Source: a bacterium (GTDB lineage Bacteria > Armatimonadota > Zipacnadia > Zipacnadales > Zipacnadaceae). Taken from it: 64,000 nt of DNA. Both the position numbers and the translations under genes were made by a program. How positions within the stretch are numbered: position 1 is the first letter of the stretch; each line of letters starts with the position of its first letter. The notes under the pieces were generated by a model. That model was given only the letters and a program-made list of their open reading frames with translations, had not been told where the DNA came from and ran no database searches. Below, piece by piece: positions 29,301-57,921 of the stretch. The stretch lies in the NCBI GenBank assembly GCA_030615605.1, contig JAUWYY010000005.1:43682-107681 (forward strand), written 5' to 3'.

Positions 29301-29399
29301 CTTCTTCTCCTTGTTATGGGGCGGAGCACAGGGTGCTCTTTGGTGTTGCGGTTGAGCATATCAGGAGAAGAAGTGAGCGGGGTGTAACTTAAGGAGCGG

Positions 29400-32935: not shown

Positions 32936-32947
32936 TTTCTGTTCTCC

Positions 32948-36523: not shown

Positions 36524-37468
36524 GTGCAAAGCATTATAGACACACTTGCTCAGGAATTCCTGCTCTACCTGCAGGCCGAGAGGGGCTGCAGCCCCCTTAC
36601 CGCCACGTCTTACCGCTCCGATCTGACACAATTGTTCACACATTTGCAAGAAAGCTACGGGGTGGATGAGCCTGCGGAAATCACTGTGGAAATGGTCCGG
36701 TCGTGGATCGTTGCCATGTACGAACGCGGGCTGTGCAGCAACAGTGTGGCCCGTAGGGTCTGTTCGCTGAAGAGCTTCTGGAAGTATCTGTGCGAACGGG
36801 ATCTGGCTGCACCAGAGGTCGTAGCGAGAGTCAGCACGCCGCGACGGGAGAAGACGCTTCCGACTTATCTCAGCAAAGAGTCGTTGCAGAAGCTGCTAGA
36901 TGCAACTCTGCAACAACGCACTGAGTATTGCGCTTTCCGTGACTATGCGATAATGGCCACGTTCATCTACGCGGGCCTACGGCGGGGCGAGCTGCTCAAT
37001 CTTAAAATGGGCGATGTTGATCTAGGCGCTCGGACACTGCGTGTTGTGCGCGGAAAGGGGAACAAGACGCGTATTATTCCGCTGGTCGAGGAGCTGGAGG
37101 AGGCGATTGCTGATTGGCTAGAGTACCGCCGCACCAAGGGGCACGATTACCTGTTCACCACCAACCGGGGCAACCGCATCTACCCAAGCCGCCTGCAGAT
37201 CATCTGGAAGAACATCCTTAACCGGAGTGGCATCAACCGGTCCGGCGTGAGCATGCATACGTTGCGGCATTCTTTTGCGACGCTCCTGCTGCAAACTGGT
37301 AACGCTGATCTGGTCTCCATCCAGCATCTGCTTGGCCACAGCCGACTGGACACGACGGCCATCTATCTGCATGTCGATGCCCAGCAACTGCGTGAGGCAA
37401 TCACGGCGCATCCGCTGTCTAGCGCAAGCGGAGGCGCACAGCCAAGTCGCTCAGTACAGAGCTTATGA
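36524..37468 (+). CDS. Tyrosine recombinase / integrase (paralog of 25617-26510)
   Basis: LYLQAERGCS, RVVRGKGNKTRIIPL, HTLRHSFATLLLQTGNADLVSIQHLLGHSRLDTTAIYLHV. Collinear similarity to the 25617 integrase. Confidence 0.9.
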   Translation: MQSIIDTLAQEFLLYLQAERGCSPLTATSYRSDLTQLFTHLQESYGVDEPAEITVEMVRSWIVAMYERGLCSNSVARRVCSLKSFWKYLCERDLAAPEVVARVSTPRREKTLPTYLSKESLQKLLDATLQQRTEYCAFRDYAIMATFIYAGLRRGELLNLKMGDVDLGARTLRVVRGKGNKTRIIPLVEELEEAIADWLEYRRTKGHDYLFTTNRGNRIYPSRLQIIWKNILNRSGINRSGVSMHTLRHSFATLLLQTGNADLVSIQHLLGHSRLDTTAIYLHVDAQQLREAITAHPLSSASGGAQPSRSVQSL

Positions 37469-38159: not shown

Positions 38160-38262
38160 ACTTCGTCTTTGCCGCGTCTCCCATCCGGTACTTGATGTCG
38201 TAGTTGATGATGAAGTCCAGCTCCTCAATGGCGTGGTCGGTGGCGCTTATCTGCCGCTACGT
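38160..38262 (-). repeat. Degenerate copy (DR-A) of the 3' end of the type IIG R-M gene
   Basis: Directly after the TAG stop of the 467-aa ORF, in the same frame, it encodes RQISATDHAIEELD..., cf. QIAATDQAIDKL at the C-terminus of the 40921-44022 gene. About 36 nt of nucleotide similarity (TCAATGGCNTGGTCGGTGGCG). Confidence 0.5.
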
Positions 38263-39660
38263 GCGTGTCAATTGAGTGTAGACGTGCGCAAGTAAGCCAA
38301 CAAGCCGTGTGAGAAGGTACCGCTGCAGCTTCCGATAGTCGCCAGGCCCATGAGGCATGGCCTTGCCAATGCACTGGCTAAAGAACTGAGTGAGCCTAAC
38401 CATCTTCTCCTCAGCACCACTATCATGCTCCACATCGTGGCGATAGAAGTTGTCACGTAGCAGCCTGACTTCATCGTTGACAAAGTCTTGATGTTGAGCA
38501 TCCAGCAAGCTCCATAGAAGACCTTCCTTCTTGCCCCCATCTTCCCACAGCAGGAAATATAAATAATCTACTACCTCGCCAAGAAGCTTCTCTGTCGCCG
38601 CTATAATGCCAGGGAAAGCTGCGATTATACTCATGAACTTCGAGCTGGCACCGAATATGGGTTTCTCCCCGGCAAATCTGGAAGCTCTGTCACAGTCGAG
38701 GATCAATGCACGCACTTGTAGCCCCAATGCCAACTCTGTTTCGTACGGGAGATCTGCCAAGAGTTCTTCTGCATCGATCTGAATACCACGTTCGGCGATT
38801 CGATCGTGTATCTCGGTCCGCTGGACTTGCAGGATGTTATAAGTAGGCAAGGCTCCCACAAAAGGTCCGGAAATGCCCGTTTCTGGATCGTACAGAGTCA
38901 GTGCTTCAAGGTTGCTCGCGCATACTATGCTCGTTGCAGAAGAACTAGCGACTATTCCTGCGCTCGCCCGAACAGTCGCGATCTCATCACCTTCGGCTTC
39001 TTCCTCTTCTATGCGGTAGCGGTTAGCAGTCTGCTCGAACATTCTTGGGGGCTGCAGCAGAACCTCGTGAAGTAAGTCACTCCGCGGAATGTCAAACTGG
39101 GCCAATGAGGCCCTAACTGCAGGGCCCATTGCGAGAGCAGCCTGCGCTGCTTCGGCAATCGCTAGGCTCTGCCCTAGCGCTGCGGCCCGTGTCTTATCCA
39201 TTCGCGCCGACCAAGACAGCAGCGGCGCCATGGACGCCGACACCGCTGCAGATTGCGTTATGGCCGTCTGCATGATCGAGGCCGATTGTTCTTCCAGTCG
39301 CTGGAGGTGCTGAAGATATGATCCTGACACGACGGACGCCAATGATATGGACAACATTACAGATTGGCCTATGGTCACCTCCATCATCCGGTTAGACTGT
39401 TCTTCCATATGCTGAAGGTGCACACCCCATGATTGTGAGAACAACGAGGTTCGATCAATGGCAGCCACAATGGATGATAGGTGGTCCTGCCGCGCTGCCC
39501 ACGCCGCCGTGCGCGCCTCCATTAACGAGTATATATGTGACGGCGAGTAGCCACCCAGCACCCGACTCAGCCCTTCGAAAGATGCCATCCGGGCTTGGAG
39601 TCCTTCGATCGCCTCAAGCTCGTCCTGGTCATCATCTGTCTCGTTGCTCATATCTATCAC
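38257..39660 (-). CDS. Hypothetical protein with internal Gln/Ser-rich helical repeats
   Basis: 467-aa ORF. Tandem approximate repeats HLQHMEEQSNRMMEVTIGQSVMLSISLASVVSGS / YLQHLQRLEEQSASIMQTAITQSAAVSASMAPLLS. No assignable domain. Confidence 0.55.
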   Translation of the reverse strand: MIDMSNETDDDQDELEAIEGLQARMASFEGLSRVLGGYSPSHIYSLMEARTAAWAARQDHLSSIVAAIDRTSLFSQSWGVHLQHMEEQSNRMMEVTIGQSVMLSISLASVVSGSYLQHLQRLEEQSASIMQTAITQSAAVSASMAPLLSWSARMDKTRAAALGQSLAIAEAAQAALAMGPAVRASLAQFDIPRSDLLHEVLLQPPRMFEQTANRYRIEEEEAEGDEIATVRASAGIVASSSATSIVCASNLEALTLYDPETGISGPFVGALPTYNILQVQRTEIHDRIAERGIQIDAEELLADLPYETELALGLQVRALILDCDRASRFAGEKPIFGASSKFMSIIAAFPGIIAATEKLLGEVVDYLYFLLWEDGGKKEGLLWSLLDAQHQDFVNDEVRLLRDNFYRHDVEHDSGAEEKMVRLTQFFSQCIGKAMPHGPGDYRKLQRYLLTRLVGLLAHVYTQLTRT

Positions 39661-39747: not shown

Positions 39748-39843
39748 TCATGTTTCCGCTGCTTGGACCATCGCGATCTCCTCGTCGGTCAGCTCGTACA
39801 GCTCATGGATTAGCTCATCAATGGCCTGGTCGGTGGCGGTTTA
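39748..39843 (-). repeat. Partial copy (DR-B, ~88% nt identity over ~70 nt) of the 3' end of the type IIG R-M gene
   Basis: Encodes TATDQAIDELIHELYELTDEEIAMVQAAET* immediately after a TAA, cf. ATDQAIDKLVYELYELSDEEIAIVEGQT*. Overlaps the last 8 codons of the FGE-domain gene in another frame. Confidence 0.6.
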
Positions 39844-40885
39844 CAGACTCAGGCTTGGGCGTGTAGACGCAGCGAAACCCGACGGAGTTGTTGCTATATT
39901 TGGGTGGGGGATGGTGTTCGCGGTTTGTCGTGCGGCACTCATCTTCTCCGTAGAAACAGTTGCCGCCCCGGACGACGCGGCCCTCGCCCTGGAGACGTCC
40001 CCGAGGGTCTTGCACGGTGGCTTCGCTGTCGGGGTAGTCGCCAAACCAGTCTTCGCACCATTCCATGAGGTTTCCGGCCATGCCCAAGGCTCCGCGCCAG
40101 CTTGCACTGTCTGGGAAGGAACCGACAGGACTTGTATACGTAACCTCCGTTTCGTCCCAAGAGTCACCCTCCTCTACGTACTGCTTCCTTTCCCAGTGCC
40201 ATGCTCGGCCTTGATTCTCGCTGCAGCAACACCGAGTCGCGTCCCAACAGTCGCCCCACGGGTATATTCTTCTCTCCGGCCCACGAGCGGCCCACTCCCA
40301 TTCCGCCTCTGTGGGCAGACGCAGGCCATAGTACTCGGCGTAGTCGTGGGCCGCCTGCCAGGTCGCTCCGACAACGGGGTACTTGTCGCGGTCTTCCAGC
40401 GTTCGGTAGTGCCCGCTTTCTAGCACAATATCGGACGGTTCGCACATCACAACGGGGTCAATTCTGGCTCGGTTGTGACCGCTCTCAATGAGCTTGTTCA
40501 GATACTGTGCGTACTGCGTGTTAGTAACGAGACACTTCATAAGCCAGAAGCCATTGGAGATGCATACCTTTTGAGTCGGTCCACCCCCGGGCTTGTCGTC
40601 TCCCATTAGGAACTCGCCATCTGGCACCCAGACCATGGACGCAAGCGTCGGGCCAGCAATTACCTGACCCAGCTCCCCTGGGGTGCGCCAGAGGTGGCCC
40701 GACGGCCCATTCGCTGCGCCAAGGCCTCGCCGCAAAGCCTGGCCCGCTCTGCGTCTCGCTCGGCGCGCATTCCACCATCTGCTGAGCCGTGTCTCGACTG
40801 GCCCCGACACCCGACGCTTGAAATCGCTCCACAGCACTACCAATAGACTGTTGTCCTTTATTTCCACCTGATCCCCCTCCTTCAA
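39818..40885 (-). CDS. Formylglycine-generating enzyme (FGE/SUMF1)-sulfatase domain protein
   Basis: GATWQAAHDYAEYYGLRLPTEAEWEWAARG...GNLMEWCEDW...RVVRGGNCF. Matches the PF03781 pattern. Confidence 0.75.
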   Translation of the reverse strand: MKEGDQVEIKDNSLLVVLWSDFKRRVSGPVETRLSRWWNARRARRRAGQALRRGLGAANGPSGHLWRTPGELGQVIAGPTLASMVWVPDGEFLMGDDKPGGGPTQKVCISNGFWLMKCLVTNTQYAQYLNKLIESGHNRARIDPVVMCEPSDIVLESGHYRTLEDRDKYPVVGATWQAAHDYAEYYGLRLPTEAEWEWAARGPERRIYPWGDCWDATRCCCSENQGRAWHWERKQYVEEGDSWDETEVTYTSPVGSFPDSASWRGALGMAGNLMEWCEDWFGDYPDSEATVQDPRGRLQGEGRVVRGGNCFYGEDECRTTNREHHPPPKYSNNSVGFRCVYTPKPESVNRHRPGH

Positions 40886-40920: not shown

Positions 40921-43900
40921 CTACGTCTGTCCCTCCACTATCGCAATCTCCTCGTCGCTCAGCTCGTACAACTCATAGACCAGCTTATCAATGGCCTGGT
41001 CGGTGGCGGCTATCTGGCGCTGGAGGCGCTCGCGGCTGCGCGGCGTCTTGACCTGGGCCAGGCGCTTGTGCAGCTCCAGCATCGTCTCCACCAGCTCAAC
41101 CATCTTATCGTGCCGCGCCACATCCGCCGGGTCATCAAAATCAATCGTGCGGATGGGAAGGCGCTTAACGTATCGCGGCTCATATGCAAACCAACCGCCC
41201 TGAAACCGCGAGCTGATCTTCTGGAGATAGAAGGTAAGAACACGTGAATTAAGGACACCGAGAACGTACATTGTGAGCGCCTTGTCGGCGATGACGATCC
41301 CCATTCCACCACCAGCCCCCTGCGGGAAATAGAGCCCAGAGTCGTCGAGCGCGAACGCATTGGCTGGTGCGAGTGTCGGAGTTACGATTTTCGTAGATTC
41401 GAACATCATCATAGACGAACTGAAACTCAAGCCATACCAAGCAGGCCCCTTCATCTTGCCTTTTTCTCGTCGTTGGAGTTTGGATTGATTGTCACGGAGG
41501 CGCTGCCAAATCTCTGGCGCACTTGCCTTGACGGTCGCTTCCGGCAGTAAGGTAGTGGCACCACCCTCAAGTGCATACGGATAGATCAAGTGCCTAGCAC
41601 TAGGACCGACATAATAGCGTTTAAGGCTTTCAGCCTTAAGGTATTTCTTGAGACAGCTACTACCTTCTTCACGTGTGGCCATTATTCCAATTCCGTTCGG
41701 AATCTCTCCCGCCTCTAACACGAACACGTCATTGGCGCCTGTCTTAACACCCGTGATCATTTCCGAAGCGAGAGCAGGCAGTGGCTGGCCAATCTGATCC
41801 AGCTTCTGGCAGAGGTCTTGTTCGTCCCTATACCCGAGCGTCCATGGCCCAGTGCCCAATCGCCCGACGTCTATCTCCTCTATACGCCCGCCGCCGAGTA
41901 GTGTCTGCGGTGTCTCGTCTCTCGGATTGAACTGTGCTAGGAAAGAGTCTTGAGGAGAAGGCGTTGCAAATACGAGGCATGTGTATGATGTTGCGCCCTC
42001 GAAGACCTGTGCTGCTTGGAAGTCAACTATGCGCTGCAGGCCGCACTTTTTGGTCAAGAGTTGACGCAGACCCACACCATAATCAGCCTGTAGGAATTTA
42101 TTGGGGACGATGAAACCCATTTGGCCATTGGACCTGAGGACCTGCAGGGCTAATTCAATGAATGCAACGTAGATGTCAACCTTGCCAAATATAGCCGATC
42201 TGAAGTGCGTTTGAATGTAGCGAACCTCGGTTGGGTAGAAGTCGACAAGTCTGTGTATACGAATATACGGCGGATTACCGATGACGCAGTCGAAGCCGCC
42301 GGCGGACATTATCTCGGGGAACTCCGCGTCCCAGTCAAAGGCGTTGACGCGGCGGGCCTCCTCCTCGTCAATCAGTGCAAGCTGCCTCCCCTCATAATAG
42401 TCCGGCCCGATGAGACTGTTGCCACACTTGATATTATCGTCAATATTGGGCAGCACCCGCTCCTGGGCCAGTTGCAACTGCCCGCTGAGCGTCTCCTCGG
42501 TCTCCCCCTCCATACATTTGAGCAGCAGGTTGAGCTTGGTGACCTCCACGGCCTGCGAGTCAATATCCACACCAAAGATGTTGTTGAGCAGGATGCGCTT
42601 GCGCTCGAAGGTGGACAGCCGCCATTCGTTCTCGAGCACCTGGATAATGGCCGGCTGCGGGCCACGGGCATGCTTCCTGGGGCTATGGTTGGTGTAGTAG
42701 TCCAGGTGCCAGTTGAGCAGATACTGGTACGCACCCAGCAAAAATGAACCGGAGCCACAGGCCGGGTCGAGAATGCGCAGCTTGCTGGCCGCTTCCGGCG
42801 TCTCGGCCTCTTCCAGCGCCGGGCCGACGGTGTGCTCGACGATGTAGTCCACGATGTAGGTGGGTGTGTAGTAGACGCCACCGGCCTTCTTGACCTCGGG
42901 CTTCTCCTCGACTTTGGCGCGGTGGCTGGGGGTCAGGCGAATTACCTTGCCCAGGAACTGCTCGTAGACAGCCCCGAGGATATCGGCACCCAGCACGGAG
43001 AACTCATAGGGGCACTGCGGATAGTAAAGCTCGGCCAGAATAGACTGCAGAGCCTTGTCGGAGACCTCCAGTTCGGGCGTCAACTGATCCCCGCTGGAGC
43101 TGAAGTCAAACAGCCCGGCGTTATACTTGGTATCGGCCTGCTGGTAGAGCTGGCACAGACGCGGGTAGAGACCCGTGCCGTCCAGCAGGTCGCGCAGGCG
43201 ACCGTACGGCTCAACGCCCCGGTCTTCGGCAATGCGAAAGAACAGGATGCGGTCAATAGTGGTCTGGACGGCGAAGTTCAGGTCGTGCACGGACAGGTCA
43301 AGGTTGTGGCGGGCGATGTCTTTGGCCAGCATCTCCCGCCACTGCTCAATCTCCTGGAGGAACTCCGAGTCAACCTCGGTGGTGCCACGCTTGCGGCGTG
43401 TGCCTTCGGCATAGCGGTCAAAGGACCCCTTCAGTATCGCCTCTTTGGCGAAGATCGAGTAGATGTCGTCCAGGCGATCGACGTATTCATCATAGGTTAT
43501 GAAGTCAACCCGAGCCACGCTGGGCCCATCTGCCTCCTGAGGCCGCTTGCTGCAGTCGTAAACCGCGAATTCCTCAAAGTCAGTCAGGATGGACCGGGGC
43601 AGCTTCGCACTCCAGCCGTAACGGCGAAGCTGGTAGGCCGGCGAGGGATCGGTCTTTATGTGCACCGAGGGCTTCTTTGCTTCCAGGAAGAACTTGCGCT
43701 GGCCGCCGATGCGGAAGCAGTAATCCGGCGCTTTGGTGGCACCCCGGACCTTGATGGCGTCCTCGTGGATAACTTCCTTGTAGGGCTCGGCATAGCCCTG
43801 CTCGTTGGCAATATCCCAGCCCAGCGCCTCAAAGAAGGGGTCAATGAACTCCTGCCTCAGTTGCGCTTCACGGTACGAGACAGCAGCATACTGGTCAGCG

Positions 43901-44022
43901 TTACGCCGGTACCGTTCCACCAGCTCCGCTACAACGTCGCGTGTATCATCCGGCGCGTTGATTGAGCGTGGCTCGTAAGCTTCAGGCATTTTCAGAACCC
44001 CTCCACCAATACAGTTCCACAC
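40921..44022 (-). CDS. Type IIG/IIL restriction-modification enzyme: fused PD-ExK endonuclease + N6-adenine MTase (MmeI/PglX-like)
   Basis: N-terminal EAQLRQEFIDPFFEALGWDI...APDYCFRIGGQRKFFLEAKKP (PD...EAK). MTase motif I LRILDPACGSGSFLLGAY and motif IV VIGNPPYIRI. C-terminal ...IDKLVYELYELSDEEIAIVEGQT. No BREX partners nearby. Confidence 0.8.
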   Translation of the reverse strand: MWNCIGGGVLKMPEAYEPRSINAPDDTRDVVAELVERYRRNADQYAAVSYREAQLRQEFIDPFFEALGWDIANEQGYAEPYKEVIHEDAIKVRGATKAPDYCFRIGGQRKFFLEAKKPSVHIKTDPSPAYQLRRYGWSAKLPRSILTDFEEFAVYDCSKRPQEADGPSVARVDFITYDEYVDRLDDIYSIFAKEAILKGSFDRYAEGTRRKRGTTEVDSEFLQEIEQWREMLAKDIARHNLDLSVHDLNFAVQTTIDRILFFRIAEDRGVEPYGRLRDLLDGTGLYPRLCQLYQQADTKYNAGLFDFSSSGDQLTPELEVSDKALQSILAELYYPQCPYEFSVLGADILGAVYEQFLGKVIRLTPSHRAKVEEKPEVKKAGGVYYTPTYIVDYIVEHTVGPALEEAETPEAASKLRILDPACGSGSFLLGAYQYLLNWHLDYYTNHSPRKHARGPQPAIIQVLENEWRLSTFERKRILLNNIFGVDIDSQAVEVTKLNLLLKCMEGETEETLSGQLQLAQERVLPNIDDNIKCGNSLIGPDYYEGRQLALIDEEEARRVNAFDWDAEFPEIMSAGGFDCVIGNPPYIRIHRLVDFYPTEVRYIQTHFRSAIFGKVDIYVAFIELALQVLRSNGQMGFIVPNKFLQADYGVGLRQLLTKKCGLQRIVDFQAAQVFEGATSYTCLVFATPSPQDSFLAQFNPRDETPQTLLGGGRIEEIDVGRLGTGPWTLGYRDEQDLCQKLDQIGQPLPALASEMITGVKTGANDVFVLEAGEIPNGIGIMATREEGSSCLKKYLKAESLKRYYVGPSARHLIYPYALEGGATTLLPEATVKASAPEIWQRLRDNQSKLQRREKGKMKGPAWYGLSFSSSMMMFESTKIVTPTLAPANAFALDDSGLYFPQGAGGGMGIVIADKALTMYVLGVLNSRVLTFYLQKISSRFQGGWFAYEPRYVKRLPIRTIDFDDPADVARHDKMVELVETMLELHKRLAQVKTPRSRERLQRQIAATDQAIDKLVYELYELSDEEIAIVEGQT

Positions 44023-44336: not shown

Positions 44337-45185
44337 CTACAGGTATTCCGCGACCTCCTGTGCCACATCAGCCTGCTCTGTGCTCTCGGAGGACACGGTC
44401 GTTTCCGCGAGCGGCCGCCGTACAGAAGGCACGGCAACGCCCGCCTGCAATGCCGTCATTACACCAACTGCCTCAAGATAGTTGTCTACAATAAACAGCT
44501 TTCCTGGCGCAAATGGGAAGGCTTCGAGATCGTTCCTCATGCGGTTGCGGTTTTCTCGCACGGCTACTACCGGTATGCCCTGCTCCAGAGCTGCAAGGGT
44601 TGGCAGTCCTACGCAACCGTCAGGAATCACCAGGCACGATACGTCAGCCGCAGTTAACACACCAGGGCGCTTCCAGACCGCCGCGCCTCGGACAATGCGC
44701 GGGCTCCGATGCAGCCCCTTCAGGACTGAGTAAAGGAAAGAAGTCGATATGACCTCGGCTGACATGCGGGGGTCAACTGCCCCAACATCCAGGTTCAGAA
44801 TCTCCATGGACTCTGCCATAGGGGCATGCGCAGATGGCATGTTGAAGATCATCGATATCGCATGAGTCAGCATCGCCTCAACACCGCCCCATGGATTGAC
44901 AATCTCGCCGCGGCTCTCGTAGTAGTCGTGATGAAAGCGCTCAGGCACATCAATTATCGAACCGAGGGCGATAGCATCGAATTCCGTCCGGCGGCGCGAG
45001 AGCACCTCACATAGCCGTTCGAGCCCTTCAACCCGTCCGACGGCTCTGCCAGACGACGAATACTCGCCCCACATGTGGATCGGTGGGTCCAGCTTAACAA
45101 CAACCGGACAGTCCAAGCCTAACGTGGCCCGTGCGCTGTGATAGCATCCAGCTTCTGCATCTCGTAGTAAGCCACCTGTCACCAA
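44337..45185 (-). CDS. Hypothetical protein
   Basis: 282-aa ORF, 15 nt downstream of the interrupted HD-ATPase gene. No assignable domain. Confidence 0.5.
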   Translation of the reverse strand: MVTGGLLRDAEAGCYHSARATLGLDCPVVVKLDPPIHMWGEYSSSGRAVGRVEGLERLCEVLSRRRTEFDAIALGSIIDVPERFHHDYYESRGEIVNPWGGVEAMLTHAISMIFNMPSAHAPMAESMEILNLDVGAVDPRMSAEVISTSFLYSVLKGLHRSPRIVRGAAVWKRPGVLTAADVSCLVIPDGCVGLPTLAALEQGIPVVAVRENRNRMRNDLEAFPFAPGKLFIVDNYLEAVGVMTALQAGVAVPSVRRPLAETTVSSESTEQADVAQEVAEYL

Positions 45186-45199
45186 CGAACGATGGTCAG

Positions 45200-47845
45200 T
45201 CAGCAGTCCTGGCGGCGCAACACGTACACAGGAGCCTCGACCTCCTCATTCGCTGCGGTGCCTATTGGCCGCTGTTCCCAAGGCGGCGGTTGTCGCTCAA
45301 TGCCGGAAGCTGCAACAAGGGTGGAAACAGGACACTGCCATGCGGCGGCAATGGCGGAGAGCACGATTCCTACAAGGGTGCGTGAGTGGTGGGTAACGGG
45401 ATCTCCCCGCATTTCGCGCGGCACCGGCCACAATGCAGGCGTTAGCTCCCACCCTATGCCGACAAGGTTAGCAACGTGCGTGTGTGTCGCCACAACATGA
45501 TCCTCGACGACAATATCATGCGCTTCTTCGCGTTTCTTGTTGAACACGCCGATAGCCATGATGAGCACCTCATCACTCCACTCAATGGTTGACAGCTCTG
45601 TTGCAGCGCGCGGTCGACCACCGACATATGCCACGGGGAGCGGGCCCGTATCACCACCCACTGCACGAACAGAAGCGGCAAGTTTCATCGCGTTCTCCGC
45701 TGCGAGCGTCGACCCCAAGAGCTGCGCCTGTTCGGTCGCCCATCGCGCGAGTTCCTCATCGTTGACGATGGGCCTGGCAGCCCCTCGGGATGCGGTGACG
45801 GGCATCCCGAACAGCACGCCAGCAACACCATCGAGCCGGGTGGCGTGGAGCCCTCCCACGACCACAGCCCCCGGACCCGGTCGGCCGCCTCTCGGTCCAC
45901 CCACGACGGCGACCGGGGGAATGAGCCATGCACGTCCGATCACGCGGCCAGACCGGTCATGCAGAGCACGGCAATTGCTCGCGAGTGCAAGCATCGTCTC
46001 CGCATTGTGGGTTGATTCCCAGTAAGGTGTAATCCTCTGTAGACGCGCGACAAGTTCGGTCGGGTTCATTTCCATCCAGTCGTTGACCCTGACTGGACAC
46101 CGCGTATCTCTCCCCTCATACTGCGTCTCAAGCGTCACGTCAAGGCATGGGTATGCAGCCTCGCAGAACTCGGCGAGCGGGTCCTCCCGAAATGCGATGT
46201 GCCCAATGAGGCCATCTTCGGCGCGTGGCGGCTGATCGAGCCAGACACGCACCACTGTACCCCCGTCTTCGAGCCTCTGGTCAGTGCTCGCTGGGCGAAC
46301 CACGGGTCGCCGCTGCAGGGAGTTGAACTCCAGTACGAGGGTGCTGTCCAGGCCCCTATCGCAGCGCCTCGTCGTAACGCGGACACGTTCGCCAAGCATG
46401 AAGACTGAGAAGAAGCCAATCCCGAAGCGACCGATCGGCCGAAAGCCGCTCGACAGCAGGCCCGGGGATTCGCGCTGCAGGAGAGGGCTGTCCCAGTAGC
46501 ATGTGCCAAAATCGAGGAGAGGCCCTGTGAGGACCTCCTAGGACATGCCCACACCATTGTCCTCGACCTCAAGCCAGTGGGTGTCCCCGTCGCTGCCGAT
46601 TCTGACACGAATGGTGCCCCAGCCATCACCGCGCTCTTCGAGGGCTCTGCGAGCACGCACGGCGTCTGCCGCATTCTGCACGAGTTCGCGCAGTGCCACG
46701 CTTGGATCGTCGCCATACAGAGCCCTGCCCCCCAACTTCTCGATCACCGCGAGTGGCTCGGATACCCCTACTCTCGCATCGACGGGCACCCATCCCACGA
46801 CAGGAACGAGTTGCGCGAGCCGGCGCGGGCTTTCGATACCGGCCACGCCGCGCACGGCAAATCGCTGCCGGCCCGTATCGGCGAGAAGCTGATCAACGCG
46901 ATGTAACTCGTCGTCAACCGTGACGAGTGTGTCGTGACACAGCCACCACGCATCTGCCAGATCCTCGCCGAACGGTGCTCCGGCAGTGAACATGAGGCGG
47001 TCGACGTGAAGGTACGGACGGTGAAGGTGCTCCTGGAACCGCCAGTGATCCCGAGAGAGCCCCTCCGGCTTTCGGAGCACTCTCAGGAGAACCGGAGCCC
47101 GGCTCGCGTCGATGTGAGCCGCGTCAGCAGCCCTCAAGAGGCACGCCACCTTCAGCGGGTCCATCTGCCACTGCCGAGGGAAGAGGCTTGGCGCCCCAAG
47201 GCCAGACCCGAACTCATGTTCGAGTTGCTCCACTGACCACCAGTGGCTGTGACCCAACCGGCCTATGGTGGGCCCGAGGTGCGAGCGGAGAGTGGAGTCC
47301 TCGAGCAAGAAGATCTGCTCACCTGTATCGGGATCATCCCAGTACATTGCAGGCAACTCCTCTGCCCTTAGAGCATGAAGTTCTCTAAGCGTGATTGCGT
47401 CCGCGCGCCGCTTGATGTCTTCAGGGGCGTTATCGATTTCCTCCTCACCTGGATATTGGCCCGTGTGCTCACGCAACTCCGCCACAACCGTGTCTCGCCA
47501 GATGGGATGCTGTCGCAACTGATCGGCGCCTCCGGGGTAGACGGCCAGGCTCAGTCCCAGATCATGGAGAAGGAAGGCCGCGCCCAAGACGAAGGCCTCG
47601 CACGGGGTCATTTTGTAGTCCTCGCCGGCGACCAGATCAGCGCTCTTCCAGAGCCCATCCAGGTGGCTGACGTCGTGCAACGTGTAGTCGGGAAGATCAC
47701 GGGCTATCTCGCCAGCAAGTAGCGCCGCCCTGGCCCGCATGCGCCGGAACGAGGTCCTGAGGCGCTCTCGCGGTTCCTCATGCTTGTCATCTGGTATTGA
47801 CGCGAGCGTGGCCCTCCATAGAGTGGTAGACTCATACTCAGGCAT
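45200..47845 (-). pseudogene. HD-domain + HSP90-like (GHKL/Bergerat) ATPase gene interrupted by one in-frame TAG at 46538-46540
   Basis: Upstream ORF ends ...ELVQNAADAV (N-box)...EVEDNGVGMS (G1 box) then TAG. The same frame continues EVLTGPLLDF...GRFGIGFFSVFMLGERV (G2 box, cf. HSP90 IGQFGVGFYSAF) into ORF 45200-46399. N-terminal region has HD motifs TLHDVSH...AAFLLHDLG. Confidence 0.7.
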
Positions 47846-47875
47846 GTGACATCTCCCGTGCTGCCTTTGTCACTG

Positions 47876-48067
47876 TCAACTCAGCCCAGTCGCACTGGAT
47901 TCGTCGCAAAGCCCCATGGCAATACTGCGCAGAAGCGTTGTATTGCCATTCCCGTTGTCCCCGACCAGCACCGTCCACATCGTGGTCTCCCCTTCTTCAG
48001 ATTCAAGATTCAGGGTGACATCATCAAAACACCGGACGTTTTCCAGGACGACCTTCGTTATGTACAT
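47876..48067 (-). pseudogene. Truncated N-terminus of an ABC/OLD-type (AAA_15/21, PtuA/GajA-like) ATPase
   Basis: MYITKVVLENVRCFDDVTLNLE...WTVLVGDNGNGNTTLLRSIAMGL is the typical N-terminal strand plus Walker A region of this ATPase family. The ORF stops after 63 aa. Confidence 0.45.
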
Positions 48068-48452
48068 TGCCGATTACCTCCCAGCTCTAATACTCCCACG
48101 GATCTTGCCAGCACCTGACCTGGCCGCATAATGGTACCACCTGCTGTGTTAGTCCTAGTGCGCCTGTACAGCCATGGCACCTGGAACCGGTGGCCGATAG
48201 TGAAGCGCACTGTGTCGCCCCCAGTTTTGTAGTATCTTCGCCATCGCGCGCTCGATCCCTTGCGCATCTCCACAAGTGCCTCGTTGGACCACTATTCCTC
48301 GGCCAGCGCGGCAATCTGCTCCTGCAATTCCGTAAGCTGCTGCTGCAACTCGACGATCTGCTATTGCCGTCTGTTGTGTGGTCAGCTCAAGGTCTGGCAC
48401 GATCCCTGCTGCAATTCGCCGCTGTGTGTCTGCCACCTGCTCGACGGTCAGC

Positions 48453-48776
48453 TCATTCTGCCAATAGCGCTGCGGCACCTTTTTCGATAGCCTCGGCAAA
48501 CAATCGCAGTCTCTCGTCGAGTCCCTTTCCTGCGAACAGTCTGCACAACTGCTGCTCCACGCCTGGGAGCAGGATCGGATTATGGATCATCTCTTCATGG
48601 CACCAGTAACACAGAACAATCAGCTCCTCCCGCATCTCCTCAGGGAAGCTGCCAGTCCATTCGCTCAGCCGCAAGGGGAGGCGATGGTGCCGGCTACGGT
48701 CAGTCAGGTTGCGGCCATAGTCGGTATTGGTCAGCTCACAGTCGCATAGTGTGCATCGGTCGGTCAATGTGTTCAC
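48453..48776 (-). CDS. Small HNH-like endonuclease ORF (possibly decayed)
   Basis: CTLCDC...RHHRLP...LCYWCHEEMIH spacing resembles an HNH/zinc-finger nuclease. Surrounded by short degenerate direct repeats. Confidence 0.3.
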   Translation of the reverse strand: MNTLTDRCTLCDCELTNTDYGRNLTDRSRHHRLPLRLSEWTGSFPEEMREELIVLCYWCHEEMIHNPILLPGVEQQLCRLFAGKGLDERLRLFAEAIEKGAAALLAE

Positions 48777-48799
48777 CTCCTATCTGCTCGACGGTCAGC

Positions 48800-49525
48800 T
48801 CAAGGTCGGCATCGGCTTTCTCCTATTATTGCCGAGGCAGCCTTCAGCGCACGTATTCTCTGCCTCAGCAACTTCAGAGAGTCCTTTGTCCATTCCCTCC
48901 CGTCGTCGTCTAATTCCCCTTGCCGAAGGTGCCAGCGCAGCTCTCTCGCGCTGTCCTGTAGACAGGCGATGAGCCTGCTACCAAAACCCCATTCGGCTGC
49001 CAACTGGTCGGCCTCCATCTGTAGCCGTTGCTCCTCGGCCTCTGACCACTCGTCAACCTTATGACTGCACTGATGACCGGCGACAACGTGGCCTATCTCA
49101 TGCGCGAGCGTGGCAGCCAAATCTGGCGAAGAAAAGCCGATATCACCATCGGGCAGTGGGCACCAACCTATGTGTACCTCGTATGTCCTGCCATAAGGAC
49201 CTCTAACTTCGGTGTCCAGTGAGTCCCCGAAGCCCTCCGGGTCTACCATGCTGAAATAGAGCGCTGGTCTGCCGCGCCGGATACGGTCCCAGACCTTTGC
49301 GGGTAAAGCCTCCATGATCTCAACGATATCCGGCTCAACGATTGGCCGGATTACTCTCGCCCACGCCCTTGTGTTCCGGTTCCTGGCCAAACGATGCTGT
49401 TTCTGGCTTGCCTCCTCAGGGCCTACCCACGCAGGAAGCGGAGGTTCTAGTTCTAATGGCTTGAAGTGATGGCGAACCCACTCACGTCTACTCAAGTTGT
49501 CTTCAGCGTCTGTCTGATCGCTCAT
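48800..49525 (-). CDS. Putative HEXXH zinc metallopeptidase (ImmA/IrrE / DUF955-like)
   Basis: ATLAHEIGHVVAGH motif. Adjacent to an integrase, as is common for ImmA-type anti-repressor proteases. Confidence 0.45.
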   Translation of the reverse strand: MSDQTDAEDNLSRREWVRHHFKPLELEPPLPAWVGPEEASQKQHRLARNRNTRAWARVIRPIVEPDIVEIMEALPAKVWDRIRRGRPALYFSMVDPEGFGDSLDTEVRGPYGRTYEVHIGWCPLPDGDIGFSSPDLAATLAHEIGHVVAGHQCSHKVDEWSEAEEQRLQMEADQLAAEWGFGSRLIACLQDSARELRWHLRQGELDDDGREWTKDSLKLLRQRIRALKAASAIIGESRCRP

Positions 49526-49645: not shown

Positions 49646-50359
49646 CTATACGTCCTTATCTGGCTGATTCGGTACGCCGCGCGCCTGGGCCACCATTGCA
49701 AGCATTTCGTTGGCCGCTGCCTCCATCTGGTCTAGTTTCAGGTCAGACTCTTCGGCGGTCGGCGCACTTTGTACCTTCTGGCGCAGGTCCTTGGGGTTGA
49801 CGTGTAAGTACACGCTGGTCGTGATGATATTCGAATGACCGAGAAGCTGCTGCACCTCCGCCAGCGAGAAGCCGCTGTCCAACAAGCTGCTTGCGTATGT
49901 GTGCCGGAGTGCGTGGGGCTTAATACGGTACTGCCTCTGCCCGCTTTCCTGCACTTCAAACTCCTGAATACCCGTCTCCTTAGCATACCTCTTCACCATT
50001 TGGTCAGGATATCGTGAGTTGATCTGTTTGCCTGGCTTCGCGCCGCTAATAGTTGTGAAGAAGTACCGGCTATGCTTTGGCCTCTTCTCATTCCATAGGT
50101 GCAGCCAGTCCATTGTGCTGCGGTGCAGGGGAATCACCCTCTCCCGGCCGCCTTTGCCATTATGGATTTCCACCTCGCCAGTATCCCATCGGATATCACC
50201 AGGCTTGAGGTTTATAATCTCCCCGACTCGCAGGCCACCATGCGCCATAAGTTCGAGTACGCACCTGTTTCGCAGGCCGGTTATCGTCCTCACATTCGGC
50301 TGATCAAGTAGTACTGTGAGTTCACTTTGGGTTAGAATCTGTGGCAGTTTCTTTGCCAT
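49646..50359 (-). CDS. Tyrosine recombinase, short form (catalytic domain only)
   Basis: HALRHTYASSLLDSGFSLAEVQQLLGHSNIITTSVYLHV. Only 237 aa; the N-terminal core-binding domain is largely absent. Confidence 0.85.
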   Translation of the reverse strand: MAKKLPQILTQSELTVLLDQPNVRTITGLRNRCVLELMAHGGLRVGEIINLKPGDIRWDTGEVEIHNGKGGRERVIPLHRSTMDWLHLWNEKRPKHSRYFFTTISGAKPGKQINSRYPDQMVKRYAKETGIQEFEVQESGQRQYRIKPHALRHTYASSLLDSGFSLAEVQQLLGHSNIITTSVYLHVNPKDLRQKVQSAPTAEESDLKLDQMEAAANEMLAMVAQARGVPNQPDKDV

Positions 50360-50555: not shown

Positions 50556-51524
50556 TCACCTCCGTGCCACCTCCTGCTCGACCGCCGCTGTAATCCTGTG
50601 CCCGACTGCCGCAAGCACCTGCGCCTGTGACTGCACGGCCCGCAACTGATCGCCGGTTAGCTGACAAAGCTGCTCCACGTGCTCCATTGCCCAGGTGTCA
50701 AGCCGCCCGATAGCCTCAAGCCGCCGCTCAAACTCACTCTTCGCCCGCACAACCTCCTCACTCAACTGGTGGTCAGAGAATCCAAGTGAGGTCTGAACCG
50801 GCGTTTCACTGAGTCCATACCCGCCCTTGACCTTCTCAATTATGGTGATCACCGCTGCAACTGGCCGGTTTCGCGCAGCAGAGGTGGCTTCTTCTTGGGG
50901 ATTGCCCACAACCCAAGCTTCCGGCAGGTCATACTGGCAAGCTTCGCAACGTACTATGCCCTCCGCGTTGATCTTATGACAGCGCGGGCAACGCACTGGC
51001 GACAGGTTAGCGCAAGGCAGCTTGCTCAATTCCTGCAACGCTACTAACCCCACCTTCCCGTCAATGTATGCTTGCTTGAGTTTGTCGCCTGCGTTATCGG
51101 CGAGATCAATTCTCCCGTCAATGAATGCCACTGATCGGCCCGCCTTCTGCCCTACAGCCGCTGCGCTGAGACCGTGTTTCTCGATCAGCTCTGCGAAACC
51201 GGCCCCCTCCTCCCAAGGCCAAATATCCTCTCGGTTAAGATTGTCCAGGAGAACATATTCCCGCGCCGCCTGGTCGTCTAGGTCAACAACAATCGCAGGC
51301 AACTCGTGCAAGCCCGCCTTGATCGCGGCAAGCCGCCGCCGGTGACCGGCCAGTAACTCAAACGACCCGTTCGACCGTCTCACCGTGACTTGCCCAATGA
51401 ACCCCTGCGCCCGAATGCTATCGGCAAGCTGATCAATGCCTTCGGTGCCGAAATGCTGCCGAGGTTGATCCTCACGCGGCTTGATCTGCGCTATCGGAAT
51501 TGTCGTTATGCTCGTCATCATCAT
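50556..51524 (-). CDS. ParB/Spo0J-like N-terminal (ParB nuclease) domain protein with C-terminal Cys-rich zinc-ribbon region
   Basis: IPIAQIKPREDQPR...FELLAGHRRRLAA (GHRR box). CPRCHKINAEGIVRCEAC. Confidence 0.75.
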   Translation of the reverse strand: MMMTSITTIPIAQIKPREDQPRQHFGTEGIDQLADSIRAQGFIGQVTVRRSNGSFELLAGHRRRLAAIKAGLHELPAIVVDLDDQAAREYVLLDNLNREDIWPWEEGAGFAELIEKHGLSAAAVGQKAGRSVAFIDGRIDLADNAGDKLKQAYIDGKVGLVALQELSKLPCANLSPVRCPRCHKINAEGIVRCEACQYDLPEAWVVGNPQEEATSAARNRPVAAVITIIEKVKGGYGLSETPVQTSLGFSDHQLSEEVVRAKSEFERRLEAIGRLDTWAMEHVEQLCQLTGDQLRAVQSQAQVLAAVGHRITAAVEQEVARR

Positions 51525-54340: not shown

Positions 54341-55501
54341 CTATTGACTCTGATCCATTAGCCGGATTTCAAATCGCTGTCTCGGCTGCCTATCCGTGGG
54401 CCTAACTGAGACAATCCCTGCTGCTGTCAATTTGTCAATATGATTGAATACGGTTTTACTCGTGACGTTGGCTGCTGCCTCTACCGCAACCTTCACTTCA
54501 TTTGACCAATGCCACTCGCCGCCCTTGAGTTCGCTAGTTATTGCGCTGTCCGTGGCGTCGAGTTGGACTGGCTCCAGCCCGTGTTCCACCTCGCCTATGC
54601 GCTCGAACCGCAAACTGCCATCGGTGAAGATCATTCGCGTGTTGAACCGAACTGGCGACCCCATGCGGTTTTTGTCCTGCATAATTTGCAAAATACCCGA
54701 ATTGTCTGATCGCCGGATTTGACATACCACATCCACGCCGCCCATAAGTGCCGACGCGCCCCTTGCAGTCTGTTGGGCGGTGCCTGAGGTACTCTTCGCG
54801 ACATGATGAATAACGATCACTGAGGCCCCAGTCGCCTCGGATACTTGCCGCAACCGCCCTGCTGCTGCACCCATCTGCGAATTGCTGTTCTCGTCGGTGT
54901 CGCCGAGGAAGTCTGATAGTGAGTCCAAGATGATGAGGCGGGCCTCTGCGTCTATTGCCAAACCACTTAGCTCCTGCACAAACTTGTCGGCGTCTAGGTC
55001 AAACTCCATATCCGTTACTATGGTGATCGGCAAGTTGGCCTTGGCTGCCAGCTTCTTGAATCGTTCCCTCAAGCGGACTGGGCGGTTTTCCTTATCCACT
55101 AACAACACGCCACCCTGGTGGACGGCGAGGCCTTGCCAAGGCTTGTCACCGGCCAGCGTAACGGCGAGCTCAAGTAGCAAATAGCTTTTGCCCACCCCCT
55201 CTTTACCTGCTAGTACAACCACGCTCTCTCCAGGCACGAACCCCTGCACGACATCCGGGGGCACGGGCCGCTTGTCTGCCAGCAGGTCGGCAAGGGTGAA
55301 GATATTTCGCTGCCGCCAGGCCTGCTTTCGCGCATGGTGCAGAATATCTTCGTAGCTGTGTCCGCCGAGGGTGGCCCAAGTCAAGCAAAATTGTTCGGCT
55401 GCTTGCTTCTCTGGGCTTGCGACAAGAAGCTCTGCGAGGTCTACTACTAGTTCCTCAAATGTCGGGCTTTTTGTGTCTAAGACGAAACTGTCCTTTTTCA
55501 T
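54341..55501 (-). CDS. RecA-fold AAA_25 ATPase, RepA-like replicative helicase with C-terminal winged-helix
   Basis: Walker A VVVLAGKEGVGKSYLLLELA. Walker B ARLIILDSLSDF. IVIHHVAKS. C-terminal KTVFNHIDKLTAAGIVSV HTH. Confidence 0.75.
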   Translation of the reverse strand: MKKDSFVLDTKSPTFEELVVDLAELLVASPEKQAAEQFCLTWATLGGHSYEDILHHARKQAWRQRNIFTLADLLADKRPVPPDVVQGFVPGESVVVLAGKEGVGKSYLLLELAVTLAGDKPWQGLAVHQGGVLLVDKENRPVRLRERFKKLAAKANLPITIVTDMEFDLDADKFVQELSGLAIDAEARLIILDSLSDFLGDTDENSNSQMGAAAGRLRQVSEATGASVIVIHHVAKSTSGTAQQTARGASALMGGVDVVCQIRRSDNSGILQIMQDKNRMGSPVRFNTRMIFTDGSLRFERIGEVEHGLEPVQLDATDSAITSELKGGEWHWSNEVKVAVEAAANVTSKTVFNHIDKLTAAGIVSVRPTDRQPRQRFEIRLMDQSQ

Positions 55502-56925: not shown

Positions 56926-57921
56926 ATGAGAAGCACTGTAGCTGAACATCAAAGCGAGACAACAACAATAAGCCCCGGCTGCCAGCCGGGAGCAGCCGTT
57001 GTCGCTGACAATGAGCAGGGAATCTACGACTTCCAGTACTTGGTGGATTCTTTTCTGACCTATCTTGGCCAGTACCGCCAAGCTTCTCCGCTTACCCTAC
57101 AAGCCTACGGCCGGGATCTGAGGCGGCTGCATGGCTTCCTGATGTCTCATGGCCTAACGACGGATGCCCACAAGATCAGCAGCCGCCACCTCCAAGCCTT
57201 TGCCATCTCGATGAGTGGACTATCCGCAGCCACGATCACGCGGGCACTGAATGCCACCAGCTCGTTCTTCAGTTATCTAATGAGGAGCGGACTGGTAGAC
57301 TCCAATCCGGTGGCCGGCGTGATCAAGCCTAAGCAGAAGTCGAGTCTGCCCCAGGGGCCGACAATTCAGCAATGCCATCGGTTGGTCCAGGCCACTTGCG
57401 ATATTCGCGACCGAGCCATGATCATGATGCTTTTGACCGCCGGCGTGCGACGCTCCGAGCTGCTGAATTCGCGAACCAGCGATTTGACAGCCGATCTCAG
57501 TCGCATTCGCATTACTGGCAAAGGCGGCAAGGAACGGGTAATCCCCCTGCCGGGACAGACCCGGCGAATACTCAAGCAATACCTGGATGAGCGAGAGTCA
57601 ACATCAGAGCTTCTCTTCCCTAACACGTGCGCTAAGCGCATGGGCAACTCGACGTTCTATCGAATCTTCAAGCGCATTGTGAAGAAAGCCGGGCTTGACC
57701 AAGCAGGCATCACGGCCCATAGTCTGCGTCACGCCTATGCCACAATGCTGCTGCACTCGGCAGTGGATGTGAAGACAGTCCAGGAGCTGCTGGGCCATGC
57801 TGACCTGAGCACCACTTCCCGCTACCTGCACTCGGATGGCGCCACCAAGCAGGCTGCCGCTGAGGCTTTGCCTGAGTTTCTGGATGTGAGCGACGAAGGG
57901 GAAGAAACCAACGAGTCCTAG
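56926..57921 (+). CDS. Tyrosine recombinase / integrase
   Basis: FLTYLGQYRQASPLTLQAYGRDL N-terminal domain. HSLRHAYATMLLHSAVDVKTVQELLGHADLSTTSRYLH catalytic domain. Confidence 0.9.
   Translation: MRSTVAEHQSETTTISPGCQPGAAVVADNEQGIYDFQYLVDSFLTYLGQYRQASPLTLQAYGRDLRRLHGFLMSHGLTTDAHKISSRHLQAFAISMSGLSAATITRALNATSSFFSYLMRSGLVDSNPVAGVIKPKQKSSLPQGPTIQQCHRLVQATCDIRDRAMIMMLLTAGVRRSELLNSRTSDLTADLSRIRITGKGGKERVIPLPGQTRRILKQYLDERESTSELLFPNTCAKRMGNSTFYRIFKRIVKKAGLDQAGITAHSLRHAYATMLLHSAVDVKTVQELLGHADLSTTSRYLHSDGATKQAAAEALPEFLDVSDEGEETNES

Follow-up and report, generated by a model that had tools for sequence, protein, structure and literature searches.

The 64,000-nt stretch of DNA analysed here (the window) contains two adjacent open reading frames that together form a single gene interrupted by one in-frame amber codon. 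Judged by its sequence, this gene is a member of the widespread, computationally described HD-CE-HSP90 immune-type family rather than an unknown system, and it is most likely either freshly killed or the victim of a base-calling error, rather than a new system or a case of regulated read-through. Taken as a whole, the explanation we favour, and hold to be somewhat probable, is a divergent HD-CE-HSP90 copy carrying a real and recent single-base amber mutation, in a protein that would work by the mechanism proposed below. The interpretation of an earlier first-pass annotation of this DNA is partly supported.

One gene interrupted by a single amber codon

Translated along the minus strand, positions 45200–47845 give 882 codons with one internal stop, which cuts the frame into an ORF of 435 aa (46538..47845) and an ORF of 399 aa that opens at an internal ATG (45200..46399). 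The first-pass annotation had read these two ORFs as one gene broken by a single TAG, and both the translation of the frame and Pfam matches that run across the stop (HATPase_c_3, aa 382–513; HATPase_c, aa 384–538) agree. The N-box, G1, G2 and HD motifs that it had pointed out are all present in the repaired frame, whose features are as follows, with residues numbered along the repaired protein.

47845..45200, minus strand: HD-CE-HSP90 fusion gene, whole interrupted frame of 882 codons, counting the internal TAG and the terminal TGA, supported by homolog alignment
47853..47857, minus strand: GGGAG resembling a Shine-Dalgarno sequence, 7 nt ahead of the start codon (ATG at 47845)
46901..47695, minus strand: HD-CE domain, aa 51–315 (Pfam PF24391, E 6e-47, profile positions 1–262 of 263)
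46232..46702, minus strand: Hsp90-type GHKL ATPase N-domain, aa 382–538, cut by the TAG (Pfam HATPase_c_3 and HATPase_c)
46661–46687, minus strand: N-box ELVQNAADA, aa 387–395, with E387/N391/D394 (ExxxNxxD)
46541–46561, minus strand: G1 box DNGVGMS, aa 429–435, with D429/G431/G433 (DxGxG)
46540..46538, minus strand: in-frame TAG, codon 436, in the context TCC TAG GAG, at the first residue past the G1 box and the start of the ATP lid
46406–46432, minus strand: G2 box GRFGIGFFS, aa 472–480, with G472/G475/G477/F478 (GxxGxGF)
46397..46399, minus strand: internal ATG (M483, in ...FFSVFM...) that opens the 399-aa ORF, with no preceding ribosome-binding site
45203..46231, minus strand: Hsp90 middle-domain-like and C-terminal region, aa 539–881, with W590, G664-G665, G676, R687 and W836 kept

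Among 38 long non-overlapping ORFs of the window, TAG closes 15, TGA 18 and TAA 5. Because TAG terminates 14 long ORFs besides this one, the genetic code is standard and the codon acts as a genuine stop elsewhere in the window, as had been noted from the letters.

Domains and relatives of the repaired protein

The N-terminal HD-CE match scores 161 bits against a gathering threshold of 27, and the HD residues H57/D58/H61, H94-D95 (within LLHDLG), H201 and D241 are present. H57, H94-D95 and D241, together with H61, H157 and H201, are invariant in 103 sequences including the window copy, so that the metal ligands are intact. The first-pass annotation had taken this part for an HD nuclease, but nuclease-type HD domains are not its nearest solved folds; these are PPX/GppA C-terminal domains and cyclic-nucleotide phosphodiesterases. 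In a profile search the ATPase matches the N-domains of HtpG, GRP94 and TRAP1 (E ~1e-16), and no Hsp90-type ATP-binding motif is missing on either side of the TAG. The roughly 400-aa C-terminal region, at first unrecognised, proved to be an Hsp90-like middle region following the ATPase. AF2 models of the closest homolog and of the window's own 435-aa fragment reach pLDDT values of 92 and 92.3, respectively.

Over its full length the repaired protein can be aligned with 102 homologs, to which it is 40–49% identical, a similarity therefore far beyond chance. A word-indexed search returned 2,143 matches, the best 120 of which are ~870–900 aa long (a few are shorter and cut) and cover 78–100% of the query, and a profile search returned 1,842 cluster representatives at E ≤ 1e-30 (clusters at 50% identity). 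The fused architecture is the rule in this family: the best 150 of these representatives are essentially all single chains covering nearly the entire profile, and in 80 of 80 genome loci, from bacteria and archaea and ranging from Acidobacteriota to Methanosarcinales, the gene is one unbroken ORF of 850–910 aa, whereas in the window copy it is not. The homologs are thus not two genes split at this point, one of the two observations that the first-pass annotation had named as fatal to its reading, and with a TAG at codon 436 set against 80 intact loci the window copy must be either disrupted or mis-sequenced. It is also a divergent member, sharing no more than 49% identity with any other on record; a scan of the genome collection gave no relative closer than 48%, and protein, genome and metagenome searches gave none above 50% identity that would reveal the ancestral codon.

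The first-pass annotation had considered the gene part of no named system, a view overtaken by the match of its N-terminal domain to Pfam PF24391, HD-CE. Nicastro, Burroughs, Iyer and Aravind (2023, Nucleic Acids Res 51:11479) reportedly described HD-CE domains coupled to HSP90-related modules, and the class is attributed to that work. The window copy shares with this class the N-terminal family, the Hsp90-type fusion and a single-gene, patchy, mobile-region lifestyle, and differs from it by the amber interruption and by an identity of at most 49%. PADLOC v2 gave no match for the repaired protein and contains no model for HD-CE-HSP90. In our literature search ‘HD-CE’ was absent from the relevant searchable papers, and no experimental test of the family's immune or nucleotide-degrading role was found; Kaur et al. 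2020 and Iyer et al. 2008 (PMC2292703) do not mention the HD-CE-HSP90 fusion, and ‘CE’ stands for ‘conflict effector’ (PMC12871103). A search for phage copies found none at full length, and among plasmid-labelled records only two carry one.

Genomic setting and origin of the amber codon

The gene sits in a decaying mosaic mobile/defence region with other gene stumps. The defence island proposed by the first-pass annotation was confirmed by a SIR2-HerA pair, a type IIG restriction-modification enzyme and four tyrosine recombinases near the gene. A search for flanking repeats or insertion scars around the gene gave only short repeats at chance level. A nearby recombinase of 237 aa consists of the catalytic domain only. 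On either side of the gene lies a remnant:

47876..48067, minus strand: N-terminal stub (63 aa) of an AAA_15/AAA_23 ABC-type ATPase, a gene remnant (AAA_15 E 1e-7, AAA_23 E 6e-7)
44337..45185, minus strand: DUF3326 ORF, a 5′-truncated remnant (Pfam profile positions 98–336 of 337)

The ATPase stub has a degenerate Walker A motif (GDNGNGNT) and ends 30 nt upstream of the HD-CE-HSP90 start, and the DUF3326 ORF, which lacks ~97 N-terminal profile positions, starts 15 nt past the HD-CE-HSP90 stop codon. The suggestion that pairs of an HD-GHKL gene and a gene like the latter might recur in other genomes did not hold, and we rejected it as a conserved partner: it is a truncated DUF3326 and is absent from all 80 homolog loci. 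All-against-all ORF clustering across these loci found no shared neighbour except an ABC/SMC-like ATPase in a subclade of about 10 loci, in which a protein of 830–880 aa is encoded directly upstream and overlaps the start of the HD-CE-HSP90 gene (~10 of 80 loci). These loci fall in a 21-leaf clade that does not include the window copy, and a two-gene variant of this kind was rejected for the window, which has only the 63-aa stub. More broadly, ABC/SMC-type defence ATPases, recombinases and transposases abound among the genes nearest to the homologs.

Apart from the stop, the gene shows no decay. All invariant residues are kept in both halves of the interrupted frame, and over 184 columns conserved at 90% or more the window copy deviates at 8, against a homolog median of 6.5, with 38 of the 102 homologs deviating as much or more. 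Since the invariant residues are kept and the deviations are no greater than those of intact homologs, the lesion is either very recent or not real, which fits the earlier suggestion of a fresh nonsense mutation or a sequencing error. At the position of the stop the homologs vary freely (T19 S18 E16 A16 P10 Q7 K5..., n = 102) and none has a stop.

The TAG could be an artefact of base calling, polishing or consensus building in a metagenome-assembled contig, or a minority allele, in which case the real 881-aa protein would be intact and functional. This reading accommodates the lack of further decay just as well as a fresh mutation does, with deviations in the range of intact homologs on either side of the stop, and single-base changes at the codon give residues that homologs use (GAG for E, in 16 of 102; CAG for Q, in 7; TCG for S, in 18). 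It also accommodates an assembly break in the 184-kb contig's source run, SRR14872670: the independent Logan assembly of this run ends its contig at 47909, 64 nt upstream of the gene, leaving the TAG site outside the overlap, and neither half of the gene was found among the Logan records, where a look-up of the 435-aa ORF also returned no contig, as microdiversity predicts. This gap could reflect polymorphism or low coverage at the gene. Against an artefact, the two assemblies agree at 7,675 of 7,675 nt across their overlap, and in general the contig is therefore accurate. Seven repaired proteins, each one step from the TAG (E, Q, S, K, W, L or Y at residue 436), were looked up as exact matches in a collection of 15 billion proteins without any being found, and a DNA scan of JGI metagenomes with N at the mutated base found no contig with the site. 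Finally, both adjacent genes are truncated remnants, and gene inactivation was therefore already under way in the region. We consider an artefact possible though doubtful, and think it somewhat more probable that the T of the TAG is real. As for a mutational origin, a 5-methylcytosine deamination hotspot (CCAGG -> CCTAGG) was considered and is unsupported, because the window shows no shortage of CCWGG (214 observed vs 182 expected).

If the stop is real, its two products might each be functional, with the 435-aa HD-CE fragment serving as an effector that is free of regulation or regulated in another way, and/or a 399-aa piece being made from the ATG at 46399. The HD-CE domain lies wholly upstream of the stop in a fragment that, by its AF2 score, is confidently predicted to fold on its own, and the Shine-Dalgarno-like GGGAG is kept ahead of the gene start. 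However, this fragment ends within the Bergerat fold rather than at a domain boundary, and neither the 80 loci nor the best 150 representatives, essentially all fused, include a protein split here. The first-pass annotation had proposed that the downstream part could still be made from the internal AUG, a proposal left unsupported by the absence of a Shine-Dalgarno sequence at the ATG at 46399 and by the nature of the product, which would be unable to bind ATP because its start falls after the N-box, G1 and G2. Re-initiation closer to the TAG was also considered and rejected: TAGGAGGT is Shine-Dalgarno-like, yet there is no in-frame ATG, GTG or TTG between the TAG and the ATG at 46399. A functional split is, in our view, very unlikely.

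Decoding of the TAG, by programmed read-through, a host amber suppressor or pyrrolysine-type recoding, would instead give a regulated full-length protein. Sense translation across the codon does yield a perfect family member, the base after the TAG is G, and the overlapping AGGAGG could slow ribosomes, although its link to decoding is speculative. Yet TAG ordinarily terminates ORFs in the window, which holds no tRNA gene, the alignment column is unconstrained, with no stop at or beside it in the 102 aligned homologs and none there in the 80 loci, and a TAG-bearing copy is known once only. The regulated read-through that had been raised for this codon is therefore highly improbable. A more specific version, to which we give scarcely any credence, would make the amber a conditional switch, with full-length HD-CE-HSP90 produced only when an amber-suppressor tRNA is supplied, for example by a TAG-recoding phage; if true, infection by phages that recode stop codons would be the specific trigger that arms this immune gene. 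TAG is commonly recoded to Gln, which 7 of 102 homologs have at this residue, the single TAG being the sole support for such a switch.

Comparison with known systems and proposed function

A canonical Hsp90/HtpG chaperone was rejected given the added HD-CE domain, the variable mobile contexts and an identity of 12–17% to Hsp90 chains, about 15% for the chaperones HtpG, TRAP1, GRP94 and Hsp82. The window protein has an extra N-terminal HD-CE part of 360 aa, lacks a chaperone context and is not encoded by a conserved housekeeping gene, and its C-terminal end, past the middle region, has no match to the Hsp90 dimerisation domain. Similar in design is VcSduA/paraMORC3 (Shedu type I-D), which joins a GHKL ATPase to a PD-(D/E)xK nuclease and whose anti-phage activity needs ATPase and effector residues (PMC12137116); both are single proteins that combine a GHKL ATPase and clamp-like middle domain with a hydrolytic effector. 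Membership of Shedu type I-D was rejected, as the window protein has no DUF4263 Pfam match and no PADLOC match of any kind. With MORC/paraMORC and MutL GHKL ATPases from restriction-modification settings (PMC2292703) it shares the Bergerat-fold ATPase followed by an alpha/beta domain as well as defence neighbourhoods, and the Pfam HATPase_c_3 model that it matches is a MORC-type model.

The only ‘-CE’ module with experimental data that our literature search found is PUA-Calcineurin-CE-HAD of E. coli ECOR28, in which the activated effector depletes dNTPs and aborts infection (PMC12871103). By analogy, HD-CE action may resemble this dNTP depletion. The two differ in effector (calcineurin-like vs HD) and in sensor (a PUA domain binding m6-dAMP vs an Hsp90 module), and the E. 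coli system is two-gene and filament-forming, unlike single-gene HD-CE-HSP90. The HD-CE-HSP90 family is predicted to degrade nucleotides and to act against phage, the evidence that bears on its activity being its fold neighbours and its defence-type neighbourhoods.

We propose that the Hsp90-like ATPase and middle region would form an ATP-driven dimeric clamp or switch, taking the role that STAND NTPases hold in other immune proteins. On sensing an infection cue, this part would free or activate the N-terminal HD-CE phosphohydrolase, which would then degrade free or signalling nucleotides and so halt phage replication; the immune role, the nucleotide substrates and this regulatory logic are all putative. 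In the window copy, a single base change would have created the amber codon just past the G1 box, so that translation would stop at 435 residues and leave a product with a complete HD-CE domain and the first third of the ATPase, lacking the lid, the G2 box and the middle region. A truncation at this point would therefore inactivate the gene, and since the rest of it is undecayed, the inactivation would be very recent.

For annotation, we recommend combining the two ‘hypothetical’ CDSs into a single entry marked as a disrupted HD-CE-HSP90 gene. The window copy brings no new principle; its contribution is a divergent sequence and a case of rapid gene loss in a decaying defence/mobile mosaic. The family to which it belongs is large, with ~1,840 representatives at 50% identity across bacteria and archaea; its structure is modelled with confidence and its function is a prediction. 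An immune effector switched by an Hsp90-like ATPase would mechanistically parallel STAND- and GHKL-regulated defence proteins.

An interrupted HD-CE and Hsp90-like fusion gene

Translation of the window gives 882 codons in one frame at 47845..45200 (-) with a single internal stop, a TAG at 46540..46538 (codon 436; context GGC ATG TCC TAG GAG GTC). This confirms the first-pass annotation, which had described one large frame split by a single TAG, and every N-box, G1, G2 and HD motif that it quoted was found in the translation.

Reading frames (mechanical ORF listing) and motifs (translation) of the interrupted gene, minus strand
46538..47845: 435-aa ORF
45200..46399: 399-aa ORF, opening at an internal ATG
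H57/D58/H61 and H94-D95: HD residues
aa 387-395: N-box, ELVQNAADA
aa 429-435: G1, DNGVGMS, one codon short of the stop
aa 472-480: G2, GRFGIGFFS

In Pfam searches, aa 51-315 match HD-CE (PF24391; E 6e-47, 161 bits against a cut-off of 27) and aa 382-538 match HATPase_c_3 and HATPase_c, the two HATPase matches crossing the TAG site; PADLOC v2 has no matching model for the product. The combination had not been recognized as a named system, a view that does not survive the assignment of the N-terminal domain to HD-CE, whose family has already been described computationally, and the window gene is a divergent further member of that known family rather than a novel type of system. A word-indexed search across 5.8 billion proteins returned 2,143 relatives, the best 120 of which show 40-49% identity and query coverage of 78-100% (mostly 95-100%), nearly all being 870-900 aa long, with a few shorter cut versions. 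The 49% of the best match does not alone exclude closer relatives, as near-identical sequences were apparently left out of this search, which returned neither the 435-aa nor the 399-aa product of the gene itself though both are in the collection; exact look-ups and DNA scans complement it for such sequences. When 1.84 billion cluster representatives were searched exhaustively with a profile, 1,842 matched at E <= 1e-30, the best 150 being nearly all single chains of 840-930 aa with near-complete profile span. Scanning one genome per species yielded 309 homologue loci; those retained, 80 in all, represent Acidobacteriota, Planctomycetota, Bacteroidota, Proteobacteria, Firmicutes, Actinobacteria and Methanosarcinales/Methanophagales archaea. 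Each of the 80 carries one unbroken ORF of about 850-910 aa, which bears out the reading of the halves as one gene whose homologues are not two genes: the fused single polypeptide is the rule for the family, and against these loci only the window copy is split. A functional split of the gene keeps just a sliver of the probability.

Genomic neighborhoods

No conserved adjacent gene was found for the family across the 80 loci, so a suggested pairing with a gene like that at 44337-45185 was not upheld. In about ten loci (L032, L036-L039, L041, L042, L045, L048 and L063) the gene is immediately preceded by one for an ABC/SMC-like ATPase of 830-880 aa, which lies about 2.5 kb upstream of the match and often overlaps the start codon; these loci all fall within a single clade of 21 leaves to which the window copy does not belong. 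PADLOC matches of these ATPases include mad3 and LmuB, and the pair has the look of a two-gene form of the family. Among the 135 nearest neighbors of homologues, the commonest families were SMC_N, AAA_21, AAA_23 and AAA_15 ATPases (PADLOC matches mad3, LmuB, AriA, PtuA, GajA and Old), with RloB, recombinases and transposases likewise recurrent; four neighborhoods inspected singly were variable, with IS elements, integrases, toxin-antitoxin-like or phage genes. The pattern is that of a defense-type gene that is mobile and stands alone.

The window gene is flanked on one side by a SIR2-HerA pair and a restriction-modification enzyme of type IIG (Eco57I/MmeI-like), and on the opposite side by a recombinase, ParB and an AAA_25 protein. 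Both of its immediate flanks are gene remnants.

Immediate flanks of the interrupted gene
47876-48067 (-): 63-aa N-terminal stub of an AAA_15/AAA_23 ABC-type ATPase, 30 nt upstream of the gene
44337-45185 (-): DUF3326 ORF, profile positions 98-336 of 337, beginning 15 nt past the stop of the gene

The stub has a degenerate Walker A motif (GDNGNGNT, Lys to Asn) and probably derives from an ATPase gene of Gabija, PARIS or Septu type; the DUF3326 ORF, missing about 97 N-terminal positions, is a 5′-truncated remnant.

Elsewhere in the window, a HerA/DUF87 ATPase gene (32948-34711, -) and a SIR2_2-domain gene (34708-36075, -) overlap and make up a SIR2-HerA anti-phage pair (32948-36075, -); a 71-aa KTSC-domain ORF is called beside HerA on a Logan contig. 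The type IIG enzyme (1,033 aa, HSDR_N and TaqI_C parts, 40921-44022, -) is adjoined downstream, at lower coordinates, by an FGE-sulfatase-domain gene (39818-40885, -), and also downstream lies a 467-aa protein with no family match (38257-39660, -). Four tyrosine recombinase genes occur within 30 kb (27287-28219, 36524-37468, 49646-50359 and 56926-57921), one product having only 237 aa and no N-terminal SAM-like domain; together with ParB_N and AAA_25 genes (50556-51524 and 54341-55501) they suggest a mosaic of integrated mobile elements, or a plasmid-/ICE-like region. A 241-aa protein with a HEIGH zincin motif (48800-49525, -) has only weak M78/M48 matches and weak CapP/Lit matches in PADLOC (E about 2e-3), and its neighbor (48453-48776, -) is a Cys/His-rich ORF of 107 aa that matches no family. 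This short-ORF region upstream of the window gene contains imperfect direct repeats of ~66 nt (48340-48455 and 48728-48807) and four copies of a 16-26-nt motif ending GGTCAGCTCA. Plus-strand GC skew reaches +0.21 to +0.29 over ~10 kb (26000-36000), several-fold above the rest of the window. An exopolysaccharide-type locus (1-26500) includes an exosortase (13197-14282), GT4 glycosyltransferases, NDP-sugar epimerases and dehydrogenase, a fusion of nucleotidyltransferase and kinase (910 aa) and a secreted beta-helix-like protein of 1,273 aa that has a choice-of-anchor Q domain.

Nature of the internal TAG

Long ORFs in the window stop at TGA (18), TAG (15) or TAA (5), and TAG, as had been claimed, is a genuine stop, ending 14 besides the interrupted gene; no tRNA genes were found within the window, and its genetic code is standard. 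At the stop column, 102 aligned homologues have T, S, E, A, P, Q, K, R and others but never a stop (0/102), and the residues one base change away from TAG (E, Q or S) occur in 41 of them. Regulated read-through, which had been entertained, is unsupported because TAG is a normal stop here and the column is variable and never a stop in homologues, and recoding of the TAG is likewise very improbable. Invariant columns are all retained on either side of the TAG. At the 184 columns at least 90% conserved, the window copy differs at 8, the homologue median being 6.5, and 38 of the 102 intact homologues deviate equally or more; at the 80% level or above the counts are 12 vs 11 and 8 vs 6, with the halves upstream and downstream of the TAG alike. 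The true start (47845) has GGGAG 7 nt upstream, whereas nothing comparable precedes ATG 46399, and no in-frame ATG, GTG or TTG lies between the TAG and that codon. Since its product would also begin past the N-box, G1 and G2, expression of the downstream part from the internal AUG finds no support. Together, the standard code, unconserved column, lack of decay and lack of restart indicate that the TAG is a very recent inactivating mutation or is not real, in line with the initial suggestion of a fresh nonsense mutation or a sequencing error.

We lean toward a real, very recent inactivating mutation. A sequencing error or minor allele is a less probable though substantial alternative, against which the contig is accurate wherever checkable and the adjacent genes on both sides are stumps: the Logan assembly of run SRR14872670, which also contains other window proteins, has contigs that agree with the window at every base over 5,160 and 2,515 nt. 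That independent assembly nevertheless breaks exactly at the window gene, the nearer contig stopping inside the ATPase stub at 47909, 64 nt before the gene begins, and this, with the absence of other damage in the gene, speaks for an error or minor allele. Neither half of the gene was found in Logan records, and the protein collection has the 435-aa and 399-aa products solely as singletons, both from a single NCBI contig of 184,065 bp. Exact look-up of the seven one-step repaired proteins found 0 in that collection, and a DNA scan found no JGI metagenome contigs containing the TAG site with any base. The sequence would allow an origin of the TAG at a deamination hotspot (CCAGG to CCTAGG); CCWGG frequencies lend this no support (214 observed vs 182 expected).

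Predicted fold and proposed function

We modeled the closest homologue, P0001 (49% identical to the window protein), with a 103-sequence alignment in place of the repaired window protein (pLDDT 92.2, pTM 0.87). Foldseek against the PDB aligned 440-540 columns of this model to the N-terminal and middle domains of Hsp90, TRAP1, GRP94 and Hsc82 (E about 1e-10), and the family profile matched PDB sequences only in Hsp90-family N-domains (E about 1e-16), with no solved structure of any family member in the PDB by profile search. The C-terminal region of ~400 aa that had gone unrecognized is therefore the remainder of the Hsp90-like module, and the family is confidently predicted to fold as Hsp90-like and HD/PDE-like modules, whose catalytic residues are invariant across the family and all present in the window copy.

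In 2023 Nicastro and colleagues reportedly named Calcineurin-CE, HD-CE and PRTase-CE as immune effectors predicted to degrade nucleotides, and are said to have described systems with HSP90-/HSP70-related modules replacing STAND NTPases; the window gene has exactly this HD-CE plus HSP90 design. Our literature search turned up no experimental work on any HD-CE-HSP90 protein. 'CE' is short for 'conflict effector', and the -CE domains are credited to Nicastro, Burroughs, Iyer and Aravind 2023 (Nucleic Acids Res 51:11479) (PMC12871103). Tested analogues are VcSduA, in which a GHKL ATPase is joined to a PD-(D/E)xK nuclease and whose anti-phage defense requires both ATPase and nuclease activities (PMC12137116), and PUA-Calcineurin-CE-HAD, which carries a -CE effector and whose activation leads to dNTP depletion (PMC12871103).

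Family genes are housed in defense-type neighborhoods. We infer that the Hsp90-like ATPase of intact members, together with the middle region, probably makes up a dimeric clamp driven by ATP. This clamp would detect an infection cue and control the HD-CE domain, which in turn would hydrolyze nucleotides or nucleotide signals and so arrest phage replication. Termination at codon 436 would leave the window copy with a complete HD-CE domain on a broken Bergerat fold, and with it the regulated function would be lost. The single-stop disruption was correctly spotted in the first-pass annotation, and the gene that carries it belongs to a known family described computationally.
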